From assembly GCA_013003285.1 (NCBI GenBank), contig JABDJY010000506.1, positions 1 to 32,884 on the forward strand: DNA of 32,884 nucleotides. Reading direction: 5' to 3'. Each line of letters begins with the position of its first letter. The first letter of the stretch is position 1. A program made the translations under genes and the position numbers. This stretch comes from Alphaproteobacteria bacterium. Lineage in GTDB: Bacteria > Pseudomonadota > Alphaproteobacteria > UBA6615. Shown piece after piece: positions 17,773 through 25,160 of the stretch. Below the pieces are notes generated by a model that had not been told where the DNA came from, searched no databases, and was given only the letters and a program-made list of their open reading frames with translations.

Positions 17773-19476
17773 GTGTCGTTTGTCGCCGAACTGGCATTGC
17801 CAGGATTGCTACGAGAAGATGATGAATCGGGCGCGTTGTCCGATTTGGTCAGCGTTCTCGTGTCGTCTGGCGATCTGTTCTACGAATGGGATCTGGTCGC
17901 CGATGGTTTGACCTGGGTCGGTCAGACCGGCGACGTGATCGGCGTTGGCGATGCGACGAAAATTGTTACCGGCAGTACCTACCTCCATCGCATTCATCCG
18001 GAAGATCTGCCACGGCGCATGGTGGCGCTGTCGCAGCATTTCGATAGCAGCCAGCCTTTCGATATCGAATATCGCTATCGCCGCGATGATGGCAACTTTG
18101 CTTGGGTTCACGAACGCGCCGTCGCCGCGACCGATGCTGCGGGCACGCCCCGGCGCCTGACCGGGATCGTGCGCGACATCAGCGCGCAAAAAAGTTCGGC
18201 CGAAGAGGTCGATTTCCTCACCAATCATGATGCGCTGACCGGGCAGTTTAATCGCCTGCGATTGCGTGAAGCGTTGGGCCAGGCCGTCGAGACGACCATA
18301 CGCCGCAAGGGGCAAGGCGGCTTCCTGCTGGTCGGGCTCGACAAGCTGAACATCGTCGCCGACGTCTATGGCGACGAAACTGCCGACGCGTTTGTCCTGG
18401 CCGTGGCGCAGCGCATCGAACAATGTTTACGCACCGGCGATATTGTTGGCCGGGTCGGCTTTGACCGGTTCGCCGTTATTCTCGGCGACTGTTCCGAACA
18501 ACAGGTCACCGCGGTCGCCGACCGGTTTCTGGCCACCATTCGCGATACGGCAGTGAACACGTCGAACGGCCCGATGTACGTGACCGCTTCCATCGGCGCG
18601 ACCATGTTTCCCACATCGGCCAAAAATGTGCGCGAAGTTGTGGGCCAAGCCGATAATGCGTTGCGCAGTGCGCGGCGTCTGGGCTGCGATTGCTATCTCG
18701 AGTTCCGCGACGTGCCCCAACAGCATATCCCCGAGCGCCCGGACCTAGTGGTCGCCGAGCAAGTGAAACAAGCTCTGCGCGACGACCGCATTGTTCTGGC
18801 GTACCAGCCGATTGTTGCAGCGCAGGACGGCACGCCGGTCTTCTATGAGGGACTGGTGCGCATGCTTGACGAGGAGAATAAACCGGTTCCCGCAGGCGTC
18901 TTCGTGCCGATCGTCGAACAAATGGGCATGATGCGCTTGGTCGACCGTCGCGTACTCGATCTGGGCATTACCACCTTGAAGGAAAATCCCGAGATATCCC
19001 TATCGATCAATGTCTCCGGCATGACCGCGGTCGATCCGGTCTGGCTACGCCTGTTGCAGGAATATCTTGAGGGCCAACCCGATGTGGCCAAGCGGTTGAT
19101 CCTGGAAATTACCGAGACGATCGCCATCGACGATATCGCCGATTCGTCGCGCTTCGTGCGATCCGTCGCCGAACTCGGCTGTCAGGTGGCGCTCGACGAT
19201 TTCGGCGCCGGCTACACATCGTTTCGCCATTTGCGCGCGCTCAACGTCGATCTGGTCAAGATCGATGGTTCGTTCGTCCGCGATCTACCGACCAACCCGG
19301 ACAATCAATTGTTCGTCAGGACGCTGATCAGTCTGGCCAAGGGGATCGGCCTCAAGACCGTCGCCGAATGGGTAGAAACCGAGGAAGAGGCGGAACTGCT
19401 GCGCAACGAAGGCGTCGACTATTTGCAAGGTTGGCACTACGGCAAGCCCGAAACCGACCCCAGCTGGTTATCCTAA
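17773..19476 (+). CDS. PAS - degenerate GGDEF - EAL protein (probable c-di-GMP phosphodiesterase)
   Basis: PAS-like region ...FYEWDLVADGLTWVG...IHPEDLPR...FDIEYRYRRDDGNFAWVHER... The GGDEF domain carries GFDRF in place of GG(D/E)EF, with RTGD five residues upstream. EAL domain motifs are YEGLVR, SINVS, LEITE, DDFGAGYTSF, KIDGSF, EWVE and YLQGW. GTG start preceded by GGAGG. Confidence 0.9.
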   Translation: MSFVAELALPGLLREDDESGALSDLVSVLVSSGDLFYEWDLVADGLTWVGQTGDVIGVGDATKIVTGSTYLHRIHPEDLPRRMVALSQHFDSSQPFDIEYRYRRDDGNFAWVHERAVAATDAAGTPRRLTGIVRDISAQKSSAEEVDFLTNHDALTGQFNRLRLREALGQAVETTIRRKGQGGFLLVGLDKLNIVADVYGDETADAFVLAVAQRIEQCLRTGDIVGRVGFDRFAVILGDCSEQQVTAVADRFLATIRDTAVNTSNGPMYVTASIGATMFPTSAKNVREVVGQADNALRSARRLGCDCYLEFRDVPQQHIPERPDLVVAEQVKQALRDDRIVLAYQPIVAAQDGTPVFYEGLVRMLDEENKPVPAGVFVPIVEQMGMMRLVDRRVLDLGITTLKENPEISLSINVSGMTAVDPVWLRLLQEYLEGQPDVAKRLILEITETIAIDDIADSSRFVRSVAELGCQVALDDFGAGYTSFRHLRALNVDLVKIDGSFVRDLPTNPDNQLFVRTLISLAKGIGLKTVAEWVETEEEAELLRNEGVDYLQGWHYGKPETDPSWLS

Positions 19477-19492
19477 GACTTAAGACCGGAAC

Positions 19493-20086
19493 TTAGCTCC
19501 GCGACAGTTTGTCGACCTGCTCCTGCAGCGCCTTGAGCTGATCTTTTAGCGCGCTCATATCATCGCCATCATCGGCGTCAGTGGCGTCCGCCGGCGCGCT
19601 TTCGGCTTGCGGCTCGGCGCTGCCGTTCTGAGCGAAGGGTGTGAACATCTGCATCGCCCGCTCGAACATCGCCATATTCTGCTTGCCGATATCATCCCAT
19701 TGGCCAAAGGGGAATATACCGCCCATGGTCTCCTGCATTTTCTGGCGCATGCTTTCCTGGTTCTGCGCGAAGGCATTCATCGAGTGTTCGAGATAGTTGG
19801 GGACGACCGATTGCAGGCTATCGCCGTAAAACCCGATGAGCTGGCGCAGAAATTTGATCGGCAGCAGGTTTTGGCCCTTACTCTCTTCTTCGAAGATAAT
19901 CTGGGTCAACACCGAGCGCGTGATGTCGTCGCCGCTCTTGGCATCGACGACGACGAACTCCACACCCGATTTCACCATCTCAGCCAAATCGTCGAGGGTG
20001 ACATATTTGCTGGTCGCAGTGTTATAGAGCCGCCGATTGGCGTACTTCTTGATCTTAATCGTATCGGGCGATTGGGTTTCGGCCAT
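19493..20086 (-). CDS. phaR: Polyhydroxyalkanoate synthesis repressor PhaR
   Basis: ...IKIKKYANRRLYNTATSKYVTLDDLAEMVKSGVEFVVVDAKSGDDITRSVLTQIIFEEE... ATG at 20086 (MAETQSPD...) is preferred over the track's upstream start at 20212. Confidence 0.9.
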   Translation of the reverse strand: MAETQSPDTIKIKKYANRRLYNTATSKYVTLDDLAEMVKSGVEFVVVDAKSGDDITRSVLTQIIFEEESKGQNLLPIKFLRQLIGFYGDSLQSVVPNYLEHSMNAFAQNQESMRQKMQETMGGIFPFGQWDDIGKQNMAMFERAMQMFTPFAQNGSAEPQAESAPADATDADDGDDMSALKDQLKALQEQVDKLSRS

Positions 20087-20201
20087 GGGACGGGGCACCG
20101 CAGTTTCGGATATTGCAGTCTTATTATAACAGAACCCCTTAAAAATGCTGCAACGCAACGTGGCTGGCCGCAGTGCAGCGAAATCCGATATAGTACGCCT
20201 T

Positions 20202-20696
20202 ATGACGGACACACCCGATTTCGCCGCTCTGGCCCGCGAGTATCTCGATCTGTGGCAGGATCAACTGACGGCGATGGCGGCAGACCCCGCGCTGGCCGCC
20301 CAATCGGCGCGGTTTTTCGAGACAATGGGCCAGGCGGAAACAGCCGCCGGTCCGCAAGCAACGGCGCAAATGGCGGCGATGGCACAGCAGTTTATGACGC
20401 TGGCTGGCCTCGCAGCAGGAGGCAAGGCCGATGACGGTGCAGCACAGCGAGCCACGCCCGAACCCGCGCAGGGCCCTGCGCGAGGGACCGCGCCCCCTGC
20501 CGCTGCACCTGACGACAGCCATCAACAGCTGGTTGAGCTCGCAAGCCGCCTTGCCGCTCTTGAAGAACGGCTCGATCGAATGGAGGCCGGAAGTGGCGGC
20601 GCGCGGGGCAGCGCTAAGCCAGCGACTGGCAAGCGCACTGGCGCAAAATCAAAAAGCGGCGCCAAACGAAAACAGTCCAAGCCCAAATCAAAGTAA
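20202..20696 (+). CDS. Small PHA-locus protein with a coiled-coil segment and a Lys/Arg-rich C-terminal tail (PhaM/PhaF-like by architecture only)
   Basis: High GC3 over 20202-20430. It contains QQLVELASRLAALEERLDRMEA, then ...SAKPATGKRTGAKSKSGAKRKQSKPKSK (11 K/R in the last 28 aa). It is divergent from phaR. The start is ambiguous (ATG 20145 or 20202; neither has a strong RBS). The 3' 266 nt overlap the phaC-like gene. Confidence 0.55.
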   Translation: MTDTPDFAALAREYLDLWQDQLTAMAADPALAAQSARFFETMGQAETAAGPQATAQMAAMAQQFMTLAGLAAGGKADDGAAQRATPEPAQGPARGTAPPAAAPDDSHQQLVELASRLAALEERLDRMEAGSGGARGSAKPATGKRTGAKSKSGAKRKQSKPKSK

Positions 20697-21738
20697 CCTC
20701 GACCTGTTCGATCAAGCCGTCACGCGCGAGGTTTTCGGCCGCCTGCAGGATCTCGCCGCCGGCATCAAAACCTATCGCAGCCATCCCTATCATCGCGATT
20801 TGGCCGAGCCCGCCACCCTATGGCGCGACGGCACCACACGGCTGCTCGATTTCCGGCCCGCCGGCGGTCAGCCGGTGCTGTTCGTGCCGTCGCTGGTCAA
20901 CCGGGCCTATATCCTGGATCTATCGGCCGAGCGCAGCCTGCTGCGCTGGCTCGCCGCCGAAACCGAAATACGCCCGCTGCTGGTCGATTGGGACGCGCCG
21001 GGCGAGGCCGAACGCCAGTTTACCCTAACCGACTACGTCGCCGGACGCCTCGACAGGGCCTTCGATGCCGCCTATGCCACAAGCCCCAATGGCGCTCCGA
21101 TCGCCGTGGCCGGCTATTGCATGGGCGGGCTGCTGGCGCTGGCGCTGGCCATCCGGCGGCAGGACCAGGTGTCGCGCTTGGCGCTGCTGGCCACGCCGTG
21201 GAATTTTCACACCGAACGTGTCGCCCAGGCCGAAGCCGCGGGCCGGGCGATCACCGCCGCCGGCGCCCTACTGCAAAGCACCGGCGAGCTACCGGTCGAT
21301 GTCATCCAGTCGCTGTTCGCCGGCCTCGATCCGTTTTTGGTGTTGCGAAAATTCATCGCCTTCGCACAGCTCGACCCCGCGTCGGACAAGGCAACCCAAT
21401 TCGTCGTGCTGGAAGACTGGCTCAATGACGGTGTCCCCCTGGCCGGCCCCGTGGCGCACGAATGCCTGGCCGGCTGGTATGGCGAGAACAGCCCGCATCG
21501 CCTGCAATGGCGCATCGATGGCGAAATCGTCGACCCTGCTGCCTTCACCAAACCCGCCCTGGTGTTGGTGCCGGAAAAGGATCGTATCGTGCCGCCGCTC
21601 TCGGCCGAGGCTCTGGGACAGGCCCTGCCCGACGCCACTATTGAAATGTTGCCCTTCGGCCACATCGGCATGGTGGCGGGCGCCCGCGCCAAATCGGCGG
21701 TATGGGAGCCCCTGGCGACGTGGCTCGCGGCACAGTGA
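20431..21738 (+). CDS. phaC: Short PHA synthase-like alpha/beta hydrolase (PhaC, class III-like/COG3243)
   Basis: Lipase-box GYCMGG with a catalytic Cys context. N-terminal GPRPLPLHL...W.SS.AALPLL and ...YRSHPYHRDL... motifs are typical of short alphaproteobacterial PhaC-like proteins as I recall them. Later ...DWLNDG... and ...GHIGMV... motifs are also present. Perfect AGGAGG (20417-20422) lies 8 nt before ATG 20431. Confidence 0.8.
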   Translation: MTVQHSEPRPNPRRALREGPRPLPLHLTTAINSWLSSQAALPLLKNGSIEWRPEVAARGAALSQRLASALAQNQKAAPNENSPSPNQSNLDLFDQAVTREVFGRLQDLAAGIKTYRSHPYHRDLAEPATLWRDGTTRLLDFRPAGGQPVLFVPSLVNRAYILDLSAERSLLRWLAAETEIRPLLVDWDAPGEAERQFTLTDYVAGRLDRAFDAAYATSPNGAPIAVAGYCMGGLLALALAIRRQDQVSRLALLATPWNFHTERVAQAEAAGRAITAAGALLQSTGELPVDVIQSLFAGLDPFLVLRKFIAFAQLDPASDKATQFVVLEDWLNDGVPLAGPVAHECLAGWYGENSPHRLQWRIDGEIVDPAAFTKPALVLVPEKDRIVPPLSAEALGQALPDATIEMLPFGHIGMVAGARAKSAVWEPLATWLAAQ

Positions 21739-21918: not shown

Positions 21919-23094
21919 ATGACCGAGGTCGTTATTGCCGGCGCAGCACGGACACCCGTTGGCGCCTTTAACGGTAGCTTGTCCGGCCTGAGCGCCGCCG
22001 AATTGGGCACGGTCGCCATCGCCGCCGCCCTGGAGCGCGCCGGCGTGTCGCCGGCAGATGTCGACGAGGTCGTTCTTGGCCAAGTCCTCACCGCCGCGAC
22101 CGGCATGAACCCGGCCCGCCAGGCGCTGCTATCCGCCGGCATCCCGGAAGACCGCACGGCCTATCTGATCAACCAGGTGTGCGGCTCGGGCCTGCGTTCG
22201 GTCGCCCAGGGTTATCAGGCCATCAAGCTGGGGGAATCCAGCATCGTCGTCACCGGCGGCCAGGAAAGCATGAGCCAGGCGCCCCACGCCGCCCATATGC
22301 GCAACGGCACCAAGATGGGCGACACCAAATTGGTCGACACCATGATCAAGGACGGTCTGTGGTGCTCGCTGATGGGCTACCATATGGGCAACACGGCGGA
22401 GAACGTCGCCGAGAAATGGCAGATCACCCGCGACGAGCAGGATGAATTCGCCGCTGGCTCCCAGCAAAAGGCCGAAGCCGCGCAGAGCGCCGGCAAGTTC
22501 AACGACGAGATCGCACCGGTTACCATCAAGACCCGCAAGGGCGACATCGTCTGCGACGTGGACGAATATCCCCGCGCCGGTACGACAGCCGAGACCCTCG
22601 GCAAGCTGCGCCCGGCCTTCGATAAGGAAGGCACGGTGACCGCCGGCAACGCCTCGGGCATCAACGACGGCGCCGCGGCGGCGATTTTGATGAGCGCCGA
22701 CGAGGCCGCCAAGCGCGGCATCACACCACTGGCGCGCATCGCGTCCTGGGCCACCGCGGGGGTCGATCCCGCGGTCATGGGCAGCGGGCCGATCCCCGCC
22801 AGCCGCAAGGCGCTGGAGAAAGCCGGCTGGAGCATCGAGGATGTGGATCTGGTCGAAGCCAATGAGGCCTTCGCCGCCCAGGCCATCGCGGTCAACCGCG
22901 ATCTGGGCTGGGACCCGGACATCGTCAACGTCAATGGCGGCGCCATTGCCATCGGTCATCCCATCGGCGCCTCGGGCGGCCGCGTTCTGGTGACCCTGCT
23001 GCACGAAATGCAGCGCCGCGACGCCAAGAAGGGCCTCACCACCCTTTGCATCGGCGGCGGCATGGGCATCGCCATGTGCGTTGAACGCGATTAG
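21919..23094 (+). CDS. phaA: Acetyl-CoA acetyltransferase (beta-ketothiolase)
   Basis: ...[18 protein letters not shown]...[12 protein letters not shown]...[11 protein letters not shown]...[14 protein letters not shown]...LCIGGGMG... AAGGAG RBS. Confidence 0.95.
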
Positions 23095-23202: not shown

Positions 23203-23925
23203 ATGGCAAGGGTAGCCTTGGTCACCGGCGGCACGCGGGGCATCGGTGAGGCGATCAGCATTGGTTTAAAGGGCGCCGGCCGTGAGGTCGTCGCCGCTTA
23301 CGCCGGCAACGAACACGCCGCGCGCGATTTCAACGAACGCAGCGGCATTCCGGTCTACAAGTTCGACGTCTCGGATTACGAAGCGACGATGGCGGCGATA
23401 CAGCAAATTGAAGCCGACGTCGGGCCGGTAGAAATTCTCGTCAACAATGCCGGCATCACCCGCGACGGCACCATGCACCGCATGGAACACGAGCAGTGGC
23501 AGGAAGTGATGGATACAAATCTCGGCGGTTGCTTCAACTGCTCCCGCGCCGTCATCGAAGGCATGCGCGCACGCAGTTTCGGACGCATCGTCAATATCGG
23601 CTCGATCAACGGTCAGGCCGGACAGTACGGTCAGGTCAATTACGCTGCCGCCAAGTCGGGCATCCATGGCTTCACCAAGGCCCTGGCCCAGGAAGGCGCG
23701 GCCAAGGGCATCACCGTCAACGCCATCGCGCCGGGCTATGTGGATACCGAAATGGTGCGCGCCGTACCGCCGGATGTTTTGGAAAAGATCATCGCCGGCA
23801 TTCCGGTTGGGCGTCTCGGCAAGGCTGACGACATCGCCCGCGGTGTGATATTCCTGACCGCCGACGCCGCCGAATTCATCACCGGATCGACCCTGTCGAT
23901 CAACGGCGGCCAACATATGTACTAA
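23203..23925 (+). CDS. phaB: Acetoacetyl-CoA reductase (SDR)
   Basis: ...ALVTGGTRGIGEAI...NNAGITRD...NIGSINGQAGQYGQVNYAAAKSG..GFTKALA.E.A.KGITVNAI.PGY..T.M... It lies downstream of phaA. Confidence 0.9.
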   Translation: MARVALVTGGTRGIGEAISIGLKGAGREVVAAYAGNEHAARDFNERSGIPVYKFDVSDYEATMAAIQQIEADVGPVEILVNNAGITRDGTMHRMEHEQWQEVMDTNLGGCFNCSRAVIEGMRARSFGRIVNIGSINGQAGQYGQVNYAAAKSGIHGFTKALAQEGAAKGITVNAIAPGYVDTEMVRAVPPDVLEKIIAGIPVGRLGKADDIARGVIFLTADAAEFITGSTLSINGGQHMY

Positions 23926-23949: not shown

Positions 23950-24681
23950 ATGCTGGAACTGCTGACCGATCCCGCCGCGTGGGCGAGCCTGCTGACTCTC
24001 GCCCTGCTCGAAATCGTTTTGGGTGTCGATAATGTGATCTTCCTGTCGATCGTCTCGTCGCGACTACCGGCCCATCAGCAAGCGAAAGCGCGGCGGATCG
24101 GTTTGATGTTAGCGCTCGCCGGGCGGATCATCCTGCTCTTCGCCTTGAGCTGGATCATCGGCCTCACCGCGCCGTTCTTCGAGATATTCGCCCTCGAAGT
24201 CTCATGGCGCGACATCATCCTGGCGGTCGGGGGCCTATTCCTCATCTTCAAGGCGACCACCGAAATTCATGGCATGCTGGAAGGCGGCGCTGGCGACCAT
24301 GGCAAGCCGGGCGCGGCCGTATTCGCCTCGGTGCTGGTGCAGATTTTCCTGCTCGATCTGGTCTTTTCGCTGGATTCCGTACTCACCGCCATCGGCATGG
24401 CCGAGCATATCGAGATCATGGTCGCCGCCGTGGTGATCGCCATCGGCGTCATGCTGTGGGCCGCCGAACCCATGAGCGCCTTCGTCGAAAAGCACCCCAC
24501 GGTGAAGATGCTGGCGCTTTCGTTCCTGCTGTTGATCGGTGTGGCGCTGATCGCCGATGCGCTGGAGTTCCATATTCCGCGCGGGTTCCTGTATTTCGGC
24601 ATCGCCTTTGCCACCGGCGTCGAGGTCTTGAACCTGCTGGTGCGCCGCCGCACGGCCAAAAGCACGTCAGACCCATCGTGA
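23950..24681 (+). CDS. TerC-family integral membrane protein
   Basis: ...LALLEIVLGVDNVIFLSIV... and a second ...DLVFSLDSVLTAIGM... half-repeat. Multiple transmembrane segments. Confidence 0.85.
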   Translation: MLELLTDPAAWASLLTLALLEIVLGVDNVIFLSIVSSRLPAHQQAKARRIGLMLALAGRIILLFALSWIIGLTAPFFEIFALEVSWRDIILAVGGLFLIFKATTEIHGMLEGGAGDHGKPGAAVFASVLVQIFLLDLVFSLDSVLTAIGMAEHIEIMVAAVVIAIGVMLWAAEPMSAFVEKHPTVKMLALSFLLLIGVALIADALEFHIPRGFLYFGIAFATGVEVLNLLVRRRTAKSTSDPS

Positions 24682-25160
24682 GCCGCGAATATCCCGACCG
24701 CCCCATCGCGGGCGTCGGCATCGTTGTGCTGAAAGGGGATGCGGTGTTGATGATCCGGCGCGGCAAGCCGCCGCGCGAGGGCCAGTGGAGCATTCCCGGC
24801 GGCAAGCAGAAGCTCGGCGAAACCTGGCGCGCCACCGCGGCGCGCGAAGTGCGGGAGGAAACCGGCGTCGAGATCGAGGTGATCGGCATGATCGACGTGG
24901 TCGACGCCATCGTGCGCGAGGGCGATACGCTGGAACCCGGCCAACGGACCGTGCCCGCGGCCGACGACAGCCGGCCGGTTGTCTATCACTACACCCTGAT
25001 CGATTGCGCCGCGGTATGGACCTGCGGCGAGGTGCGCGCCGGCAGCGATGCCGCCCACGCCGAATTTTGGCCGCTCGATCGCCTCGGCGAACTGCCCCTC
25101 TGGTCGGAGACCGTGCGCATCATCACCGAAGCCGCCGCGTTGCGCGATGGGGCGAAATGA
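24678..25160 (+). CDS. NUDIX hydrolase
   Basis: Nudix box GGKQKLGETWRATAAREVREETGV (GX5EX7REUXEEXGU). GTG 24678 overlaps the terC-family stop (GTGA). The 318-aa track ORF from 24204 is an artefactual extension. Confidence 0.85.
   Translation: MSREYPDRPIAGVGIVVLKGDAVLMIRRGKPPREGQWSIPGGKQKLGETWRATAAREVREETGVEIEVIGMIDVVDAIVREGDTLEPGQRTVPAADDSRPVVYHYTLIDCAAVWTCGEVRAGSDAAHAEFWPLDRLGELPLWSETVRIITEAAALRDGAK

Follow-up and report, generated by a model that had tools for sequence, protein, structure and literature searches.

A small open reading frame (ORF) and the polyhydroxyalkanoate (PHA) synthase gene phaC share 266 nt of one strand, read in two different frames, on a contig from an alphaproteobacterium of the UBA6615 lineage (JABDJY010000506.1 of assembly GCA_013003285.1; the whole stretch that was analysed, 32,884 nt, is called the window below). 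The small ORF encodes 164 amino acids (20202..20696, plus strand, from ATG 20202 to TAA 20694-20696) and the PhaC1-type synthase 435 (20431..21738, plus strand, from ATG 20431-20433). From 20431 to 20696 the plus strand is dual-coding, specifying residues 1-88 of PhaC (with 2 nt of codon 89) as well as residues 77-164 and the stop of the small protein: the final 88 sense codons of the small gene and the initial 88 codons of phaC lie on the same DNA, offset by one base. Judged by comparative sequence analysis, the two form a deeply conserved, same-strand overprinted gene pair that includes an unannotated protein family. We consider it very probable that the overlap is a genuine and ancient dual-coding segment that arose by overprinting; the small protein would serve as a PhaM/PhaF-like partner of the synthase, inherited and expressed together with it. 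The pair is apparently undescribed.

The PhaC frame is +1 relative to the small ORF and the length of the overlap is 2 mod 3, a relation called phase 1 in the naming of Sabath et al., 2008 (PMC2542354). A Shine-Dalgarno site for PhaC, AGGAGG, can be read directly from the sequence at 20417..20422 (plus strand), separated from the start codon by an 8-nt spacer (20423-20430). An initial annotation of this DNA had given the start at ATG 20431, the AGGAGG site with its spacer, the TAA and the length of 266 nt, and all of these are exact. It had also called both ORFs PHA genes; the name is right for phaC, and the small ORF earns it only from its invariable place in the phaR / phaC-phaA-phaB cluster.

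Conservation of the overlap across loci

From a genome collection with ~560 PhaC relatives, eighty loci were fetched by PhaC alignment (81 counting the window), including loci of Azospirillum spp., Magnetospirillum sp. SS-4, Marivibrio halodurans, Dongia, Acidisoma, Stellaceae, Kiloniellales and Dongiaceae. At 80 of the 81, a homologue of the small ORF lies upstream on the same strand with PhaC at +1. Its stop falls 116-239 nt (median 161) past the start of the PhaC motif GPRPLPLHL at 79 of 80 loci, the remaining one (L051) having escaped the pattern search. With plausible PhaC starts the overlap is 164-320 nt long (median 215), and its length is 2 mod 3 at 79 of 80 loci, with L062 the exception. 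The same arrangement recurs at 42 of 44 informative metagenome loci, at PhaC identities down to 41-45%, and at 11 further loci reached by exact-protein look-ups, three of which started from the small protein. Altogether more than 130 loci carry the overlap, and they span Azospirillum, Magnetospirillum, Pelagibius, Dongia, Stellaceae and Kiloniellales. Aligning orthologous loci in both frames had been proposed as a check in the initial annotation, and these counts, with the frame relation always +1, bear the overlap out.

An orthologue whose upstream ORF ends before the phaC start, which the initial annotation had named as evidence against a real overlap, does exist. At L062 (a metagenome-assembled genome, Alphaproteobacteria PW3; 2740-2960) the small ORF has 65 aa, comprises the N-domain only and meets the PhaC ATG in an ATGA junction; the N-terminal motif of its PhaC is retained but more diverged (KPRPLALHF..WCGG). 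In a neighbour-joining tree the locus is nested among overlap-bearing loci and, on that ground, looks like a secondary loss. A PhaC-like gene with 44% identity that adjoins phaR at another locus (L118, 1091-2511) has neither the GPRPLPLHL motif nor a small upstream ORF, and the motif and the small protein may thus be gained or lost together. At a third locus (L138, 2800-4000), with an intact small ORF and an AIPR (abortive-infection) gene nearby, the PhaC sequence is distributed over three reading frames; the split is either a long-read indel error or a pseudogene.

Selection on both reading frames

In this GC-rich DNA an open alternative frame comes cheaply: the median chance is 0.55 per locus, so that 40.7 of 79 loci would be expected to be open, and openness of the ORF was set aside as evidence on that account. 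A synonymous-redraw test holds the protein of one frame fixed, redraws its codons from the usage of the locus itself and scores the other frame against the family profile. With the PhaC protein fixed, the small frame scores 41 bits in the real sequences against 9 in simulated ones, and 2 of 1580 simulations reach the real value; with the small protein fixed, the PhaC frame scores 47 bits against 1.7, and none of 1580 simulations reaches it. A split-half control, in which one half of the loci supplied the profiles and the other half was scored, gives an excess of 40 bits in the overlap against 4-10 bits in three single-coding PhaC regions. The alternative frames of the controls contain 0.1-0.6 stops per 48 codons.

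Substitutions were partitioned in the manner of OLGenie in a close clade of 11 distinct sequences with 75-95% PhaC identity, assembled by exact-protein look-ups (the metagenome scan gave few close relatives). The ratio of nonsynonymous to synonymous divergence (dN/dS) is 0.12 in the PhaC-only region (dS 0.99) and 0.13 in the small-only region, which encodes the N-domain. Within the overlap core, dNN/dSN for the PhaC frame is 0.19 (confidence interval, CI, 0.10-0.33) and dNN/dNS for the small frame is 0.58 (CI 0.32-0.97). PhaC-synonymous divergence is 0.41 in the overlap (CI 0.29-0.57) as against 0.99 outside it, and drops to 0.21 under the predicted leucine zipper of the small protein, a suppression of about 5-fold; small-frame synonymous divergence is 0.14 in the overlap and 0.75 outside. 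The suppressed synonymous variation that the initial annotation had suggested looking for is therefore present in both frames. A naive single-frame dN/dS of 1.28 for the small frame in the overlap was rejected in favour of the partitioned classes; it is misleading because the synonymous sites of the small frame are second codon positions of PhaC. The two partitioned ratios, both below one, and the redraw tests support the view that both frames are functional across the overlap, and at the level of sequence comparison purifying selection acts on each of them beyond what either induces in the other.

Codon-position composition speaks to the relative age of the frames. Position-3 GC is 0.91 for PhaC and 0.57 for the small ORF at 20431-20562, 0.77 and 0.59 at 20563-20628, and 0.36 and 0.55 at 20629-20694, which agrees with the earlier observation that GC at this position favours the phaC frame at 20431-20560 and is ambiguous later. 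Over 79 loci, the third-position GC of PhaC is 0.84 inside and outside the overlap alike, and that of the small frame is 0.59. These values suggest that the PhaC frame is the older one and that the C-terminal half of the small gene is an overprinted extension.

The small protein and its family

Homologues of the small protein have 117-186 aa at 32-96% identity. Conserved in them are, at the N-terminus, a PDFAALARxYLDLWEDQLTAMAADP domain and, towards the C-terminus, an LAxRLAALEERLxxLEAG segment and a basic tail. An exhaustive profile search returned 1216 clusters (at 50% identity) with E<=1e-3, of which 597 reach E<=1e-10; among the best 150 listed of the 1216, nearly all match over the full length. 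Every named member of the family is labelled "hypothetical protein". Pfam and NCBIfam searches with the window protein and all 25 aligned homologues gave only sub-threshold matches to generic coiled coils, a PDB profile search with the small protein gave designed or viral coiled coils only, and a Foldseek search with its AlphaFold2 (AF2) model, whose global confidence is low (predicted template modelling score, pTM, 0.24), gave no match. By these searches the small protein belongs to an uncharacterised family.

In the AF2 model, helices at residues 7-27, 29-48 and 50-71 make up a predicted three-helix N-domain (residues 7-71, 20220..20414; this and the following segments are on the plus strand). 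A disordered Ala/Pro linker (residues 72-105) leads to a helix at residues 106-130 with a predicted local distance difference test score (pLDDT) of 84-89, and a disordered tail follows. The helix (20517..20591, QQLVELASRLAALEERLDRMEAG) has the heptad pattern of a leucine-zipper coiled coil: in 79 loci its a/d positions (3-4-3-4-3) hold L, I, V, M or F at frequencies of at least 80-90% at alignment columns 14, 17, 21, 24, 28 and 31. The heptad is kept at loci where the PhaC motif SSxAALPLLRNGSxxW, read from the other frame, has drifted (L030, L032, L041, L043, L048, L049, L052 and L073). The C-terminal tail (residues 131-164, 20592..20693), predicted to be disordered and rich in K, R, G, A, P and S, is basic throughout the family; in 72 loci the tails contain 35% K+R and 4% D+E and have a median net charge of +6. 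The coiled coil and Lys-rich tail that the initial annotation had read in this frame are thus conserved in homologues down to 32% identity. In Marivibrio halodurans (L066) the tail contains AKSPAKSPAKSP repeats, recalling the DNA-binding tails of histone H1, AlgP and PhaF-type proteins.

The synthase and its N-terminal extension

PhaC has relatives in the thousands, many of them 410-445 aa long and covering 94-100% of the query. It consists of an N-terminal helical extension (residues 1-117) followed by an alpha/beta-hydrolase core with a GYCMGG box, which aligns with GYCIGG of A. caviae PhaC. All of 23 homologues (55-83% identity) keep C230, D384 and H411 unchanged, and D384 and H411 would belong to the catalytic triad. 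Sequence and fold searches of the PDB both lead to PHA synthases (9knj/9knk, 5xav, 5hz2 and 5t6o, from A. caviae, Chromobacterium and C. necator), these being the best fold matches. On these grounds the core is a PHA synthase. Its setting, with phaA and phaB alongside and phaR divergent, is the context for a predicted polymerase activity. Assignment to class III failed: the match to the class III subunit model TIGR01836 (1e-44, residues 124-434 only) scores 153 bits, under the curated cutoff of 365.3, and the partner family PhaE (PF09712) gave no match at E<=1 in the upstream small protein and 24 homologues.

The extension contains the residues encoded by the overlap. In the AF2 model of PhaC (pLDDT 85.5, pTM 0.83), helices at 23-45 and 53-73 are followed by a low-confidence linker (74-84), a helix at 85-117 and then the core; residues 71-90 have a pLDDT of 56-60, compared with 74-82 in the two preceding helices and at least 81 afterwards. 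R17, P20, R21, P22, L25, H26, A30, W34, S37, L41, W51 and L62 are invariant in the 23 homologues, which vindicates the N-terminal motif that the initial annotation had given. GPRPLPLHL itself (20485..20511, plus strand) is at least 90% conserved at 7 of its 9 positions over 79 loci, and the longer pattern GPRPLPLHL..W..SS..L..W is invariant or nearly so in homologues at 41-83% identity. A low-complexity insert, A71-N89 (20641-20697), is confined to the close clade, where the tail of the small protein is long and Lys-rich. The idea that this insert is the shadow of the tail finds support in its restriction to the clade, its low pLDDT and the drop in PhaC position-3 GC.

How the two proteins share the DNA

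Conservation and modelling show that the constraint is shared out between the two proteins along the segment. The Ala/Pro linker of the small protein overlies the Shine-Dalgarno site of PhaC, its start codon and the GPRPLPLHL motif. In the sub-block of that motif there are 0 changes in the class that is nonsynonymous for PhaC and synonymous for the small protein, whose frame is the variable linker there, and PhaC dominates the constraint. The zipper overlies the end of PhaC helix 1 and the next loop (in the PhaC frame, bases 20517-20591 read ..NSWLSSQAALPLLKNGSIEWRP), and this part has the strongest joint constraint of the segment. The Lys/Arg tail overlies the PhaC helix at 53-73 and then the insert A71-N89; over the last ~55 nt of the overlap the small protein dominates. 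The linker in the small protein thus takes up the signals of PhaC, the low-complexity linker in PhaC takes up the Lys/Arg tail, and tight constraint in both frames is limited to ~50-75 nt, where the zipper faces the end of PhaC helix 1 and its loop.

Expression signals

The small gene, the PhaC1-type synthase gene, phaA and phaB would form one operon divergent from phaR. The divergent intergenic region (20087..20201, 115 nt, no strand assigned) separates phaR from the small ORF and contains TGC-rich repeats, an inverted repeat TTGCAG..CTGCAA (20113-20153) and a TATAGT box (20189-20194) that ends ~7 nt ahead of ATG 20202. A block within it, AATGCTGCAAyGCArCG..CTGGCCGCArTGCAGCGAAATCCGATATAGT, is nearly invariant in 11 close-clade loci, which suggests a candidate PhaR operator and promoter; a scan for consensus sigma-70 promoters found none. 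The small ORF may be leaderless or have a short leader. A further in-frame ATG lies upstream at 20145, and ATG 20202 is the probable start because the upstream codon sits within the conserved intergenic block.

The AGGAGG ahead of phaC is embedded in the Gly-Gly codons of the small ORF (gca GGA GGc). Its GGAGG core is present at 10 of 11 distinct close-clade loci (L133 has GGAAGG) and the full AGGAGG at 6, and an ATG or GTG start ahead of the PhaC motif is conserved. A terminator-like hairpin at 20287-20312, followed by TTTTT (to 20321), lies within the part of the small ORF that encodes the N-domain, and its T-run encodes the conserved Phe-Phe of SARFFE; terminator-like hairpins are no more frequent than chance (6 found, 3.5 expected). 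Folding of the RNA around the start of phaC is likewise no stronger than in shuffled sequence (z = -0.07). Termination-reinitiation coupling is impossible because the small-ORF stop lies 266 nt past the PhaC start, and the same holds for junctions of the ATGA/TGATG type: the stop is that far downstream in the window and 164-320 nt downstream elsewhere, and only L062 has ATGA. True overprinting with translational coupling had been one of the possibilities raised in the initial annotation; the overprinting stands, and the coupling is unsupported in view of the position of the stop, the clade-specific Shine-Dalgarno site and the lack of significant RNA structure. Independent internal initiation on one operon mRNA seems likeliest from these signals: ribosomes would start independently at ATG 20202, possibly on a leaderless or short-leader mRNA, and a second time, internally, at the Shine-Dalgarno-led ATG 20431 within the small ORF.

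Alternative explanations

The overlap could be apparent rather than real if only the N-domain of the small protein were functional and its C-terminal half were read-through to the first stop inside phaC, with its conservation a mere shadow of PhaC. The low cost of an open frame (both the chance per locus and the few stops in the control frames), the naive ratio of 1.28, the atypical position-3 GC of the small frame and the fact that L062 manages without this half all fit such a reading. We nevertheless think it unlikely, for with PhaC held fixed the small frame keeps its 41 bits against 9 and its excess of 40 against 4-10 in the controls; the heptad (79 loci) and the basic tail (72 loci) are kept even where the PhaC motif has drifted; PhaC-synonymous divergence is suppressed about 5-fold under the zipper; and the CI of dNN/dNS stays below one. 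The reverse possibility, that PhaC starts downstream of the small-ORF stop and its 88-codon extension is untranslated, has very little probability in our estimate. The TIGR01836 match begins only at residue 124, homology to PDB entries begins at ~106-126, and some pipelines do call a shorter PhaC (NCBI in Pelagibius marinus; JGI, 392 aa). The PhaC frame of the window, however, has no ATG, GTG or TTG between 20593 and 20800, and a start at 20800 (residue 124) would remove the invariant R104, G111, Y115, H118, Y120 and R122. The near-invariance of GPRPLPLHL..W..SS..L..W, the dNN/dSN of 0.19, the 47 bits against 1.7, the helices predicted at 23-45 and 53-73 with a pLDDT of ~75-82 and a position-3 GC that equals that of the rest of the gene also speak for a translated extension.

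Two further alternatives involve a shift of frame. Programmed +1 frameshifting would fuse the small N-domain to PhaC and yield a synthase of class I size, the overlap being the shift window; the relation is strictly +1 everywhere, the internal AGGAGG of the close clade lies inside the small ORF as at prfB-type +1 sites, and the fusion would resemble a class I PhaC with its own N-terminal domain. A fixed frame is already explained by descent and dual coding, though, and no slippery, stop or hungry codon is seen by eye near the Shine-Dalgarno site of the window (no systematic scan was run). That site is also absent at 30 of 80 loci, a conserved ATG or GTG precedes the PhaC motif, and a pure shift window would have no need of a zipper and basic tail under selection. 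We regard this as improbable, somewhat more so than read-through. As for an assembly indel or a recent frameshift in this one contig, both of which the initial annotation had offered, nothing specific argues for them beyond the presence of frameshifted assemblies in the family (L138, split over three frames, and L117, broken). Conservation across independent assemblies refutes them, and we give them practically no chance: the same frame and overlap are found at more than 130 loci from independent projects and technologies, among them complete genomes and cultured strains (Azospirillum spp., Magnetospirillum sp. SS-4, Marivibrio halodurans and Pelagibius marinus).

The reading as a whole, a dual-coding segment whose small protein would act as a partner of the synthase, remains very probable, and several observations weigh against it all the same. 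In the overlap, the small frame is under weaker selection than the PhaC frame, the upper bound on its ratio of 0.58 being 0.97. The L062 lineage lacks the zipper and the tail yet keeps PhaC and the small N-domain, so that the overprinted half is dispensable in that lineage. The strong Shine-Dalgarno site is specific to the close clade, 30 of 80 genome loci having no match of at least 4 nt, and nothing favours translational coupling of a structural or termination type. Searches of Pfam, NCBIfam, PDB and Foldseek detect no homology of the small protein to PhaM, PhaF, PhaE or phasins; its likeness to PhaM and PhaF is therefore one of analogy, and no membership is claimed. Finally, PhaC1 of Rhodospirillum rubrum, a possible orthologue of the PhaC described here, is said to have been active alone in vitro in the hands of Jin and Nikolau in 2012. 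If that enzyme is orthologous and active alone, the small protein is no obligatory catalytic subunit.

Neighbouring genes

The repressor of PHA synthesis, phaR (19493..20086, minus strand), matches PF07879 (4e-31), PF05233 (2e-19) and TIGR01848 (3e-48), all above cutoff, and is transcribed divergently from the cluster of small ORF, phaC, phaA and phaB. Delimited mechanically, its ORF reaches GTG 20212 (239 aa), which would make it run, on the opposite strand, over the start of the small ORF. The homology sets in ~42 codons into the translation, at ATG 20086 (MAETQSPD...), and this codon is on that account taken as the start of phaR. Downstream of phaC on the plus strand follow phaA (acetyl-CoA acetyltransferase, 21919..23094), identified from an ORF whose syntenic gene in close relatives carries Thiolase_N and Thiolase_C and is annotated as acetyl-CoA C-acetyltransferase in A. 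brasilense, and phaB (acetoacetyl-CoA reductase, 23203..23925), an ORF whose syntenic gene is annotated phbB in A. brasilense Sp7.

A PAS-GGDEF-EAL gene of c-di-GMP turnover (17773-19476) adjoins phaR. Close relatives and more distant loci (L136, L137) have the same neighbour, and its synteny with the PHA cluster therefore seems to be conserved. Beyond phaB, a TerC ORF (23950-24681) shares 478 nt, at the ORF level, with a 318-aa ORF (24204-25160) that has a NUDIX domain. The NUDIX domain begins only at residue 169, and so this is probably a long upstream extension of the ORF and no second real overlap. Rfam and tRNA scans of the window gave no matches.

Annotation and significance

Existing annotation often omits or shortens one of the two genes, as differences between pipelines at L081, L136 and L128-L135 illustrate. 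On plasmid p3 of A. brasilense Sp7 (NZ_CP012917; L081, 2385-3114) the overlap is 230 nt. The PLSDB copy of this RefSeq record has entries for phaR, an "alpha/beta fold hydrolase", phaA and phbB, with a 500-nt gap at the small ORF; the PLSDB gene table is incomplete and the original Sp7 RefSeq record may differ. Gene calls in ENA and Logan give PhaC at full length and omit the small ORF. JGI calls both genes and shortens PhaC to 392 aa. In Pelagibius marinus (L136, 2501-4073) NCBI annotates the small ORF and cuts PhaC to 348 aa, leaving the invariant motif unannotated upstream. Papers on the R. rubrum phaC1AB operon and on the A. brasilense polyhydroxybutyrate (PHB) genes mention no such small gene, and literature searches on the overlap, on overprinting in PHA genes and on class III-like PhaC proteins of Rhodospirillales with an extended N-terminus returned no relevant paper.

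To our knowledge, few long overlaps between two cellular, non-mobile genes of bacteria are well supported. Here both frames are seen to be under selection by comparative sequence alone, at more than 130 loci in several alphaproteobacterial families, and the pair offers a clean model for bacterial overprinting together with a map of how two proteins share their DNA. Work on phaC1-type genes of PHB-producing Rhodospirillales with constructs, knockouts or expression studies may thus have deleted, truncated or co-expressed a second protein unnoticed. Should the small protein prove to be a synthase partner or a tether between granule and nucleoid, it would bear on the biology of PHB granules and on bioplastic engineering.

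Possible function and comparison with known systems

By analogy, the small protein would work like PhaM or PhaF, as a synthase partner by which the synthase and nascent PHB granules are tethered or organised, on the nucleoid for instance. The overlap would tie the two genes firmly together in inheritance and in expression. The tail composition, the heptad and the disorder that AF2 predicts on both sides of the helix are those of a PhaM/PhaF-type tail and coiled coil. A bolder version, which we hold only tentatively and think less likely than not to be right, takes the small protein for the partner that PhaC1-type synthases of Rhodospirillales have so far lacked, either a new PhaM/PhaE-like subunit or a granule-nucleoid tether. 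Its zipper and tail would have arisen by overprinting on the N-terminal extension of the synthase itself, and the co-encoded segments would be in contact. PhaC helices 23-73 would then touch the small N-domain or the zipper, and the overlap would enforce co-evolution and fixed co-expression of the pair; this would amount to a new two-component class of PHA synthase, hidden by annotation in Azospirillum brasilense and Magnetospirillum.

PhaF has an amphipathic N-terminus, a leucine zipper and a histone-like DNA-binding tail, and PhaM has a Lys-rich PAKKA tail and binds and activates PhaC1 (PMC9049629). Like PhaM of Cupriavidus necator and PhaF of Pseudomonas putida (PMC9049629, PMC3556143), the small gene stands among PHA genes and encodes a helical N-terminal part and a disordered, histone-like C-terminal tail rich in Lys, Arg, Ala and Pro. 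It also shares with PhaF a predicted oligomerising coiled coil of leucine-zipper type. It differs from both in length (117-186 aa, compared with ~260 aa) and in having no detected similarity to them in sequence or fold. We know of no description of phaM or phaF overlapping a synthase gene.

Class III (PhaC/PhaE) and class IV (PhaC/PhaR) synthases resemble the present system in their short PhaC core, which is nearest to class III here (TIGR01836, 1e-44), and in a small gene directly upstream. The system departs from class III in its TIGR01836 score (153 against 365), in the absence of PF09712 and in the ~117-residue N-terminal helical extension of PhaC. No long out-of-frame overlap is known to us for phaEC. 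In Rhodospirillum rubrum, phaC1-phaA-phaB lies beside a divergent phaR, and PhaC1 is 14-18% identical to the class I paralogues (PMC4026134, PMC12983893). The gene order is the same as here, and such low identity of PhaC1 is what would be expected of the PhaC type described here. Unlike here, the R. rubrum papers and consecutive locus tags list no gene between phaR and phaC1 (PMC4026134, PMC12983893).

As a case of overprinting, the pair shares with the classic examples one DNA read in two frames, a terminal overlap at +1, a disordered or low-complexity stretch in one product over a conserved one in the other, and suppressed synonymous change. Those examples are same-strand genes of phages and viruses and, in bacteria, comS inside srfAB of B. 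subtilis. Most of the long overlaps in bacterial annotations are generally regarded as mistakes in calling the start site. General statistics on overlapping bacterial genes have been compiled by Sabath et al., 2008 (PMC2542354), and the recent bacterial cases that have been well publicised are young antisense ORFs (e.g., PMC8850804). The present pair differs from the viral cases in belonging to a metabolic operon, on a chromosome or chromid, of free-living bacteria; its overlap is long (164-320 nt) and conserved across whole families of Rhodospirillales-like Alphaproteobacteria.

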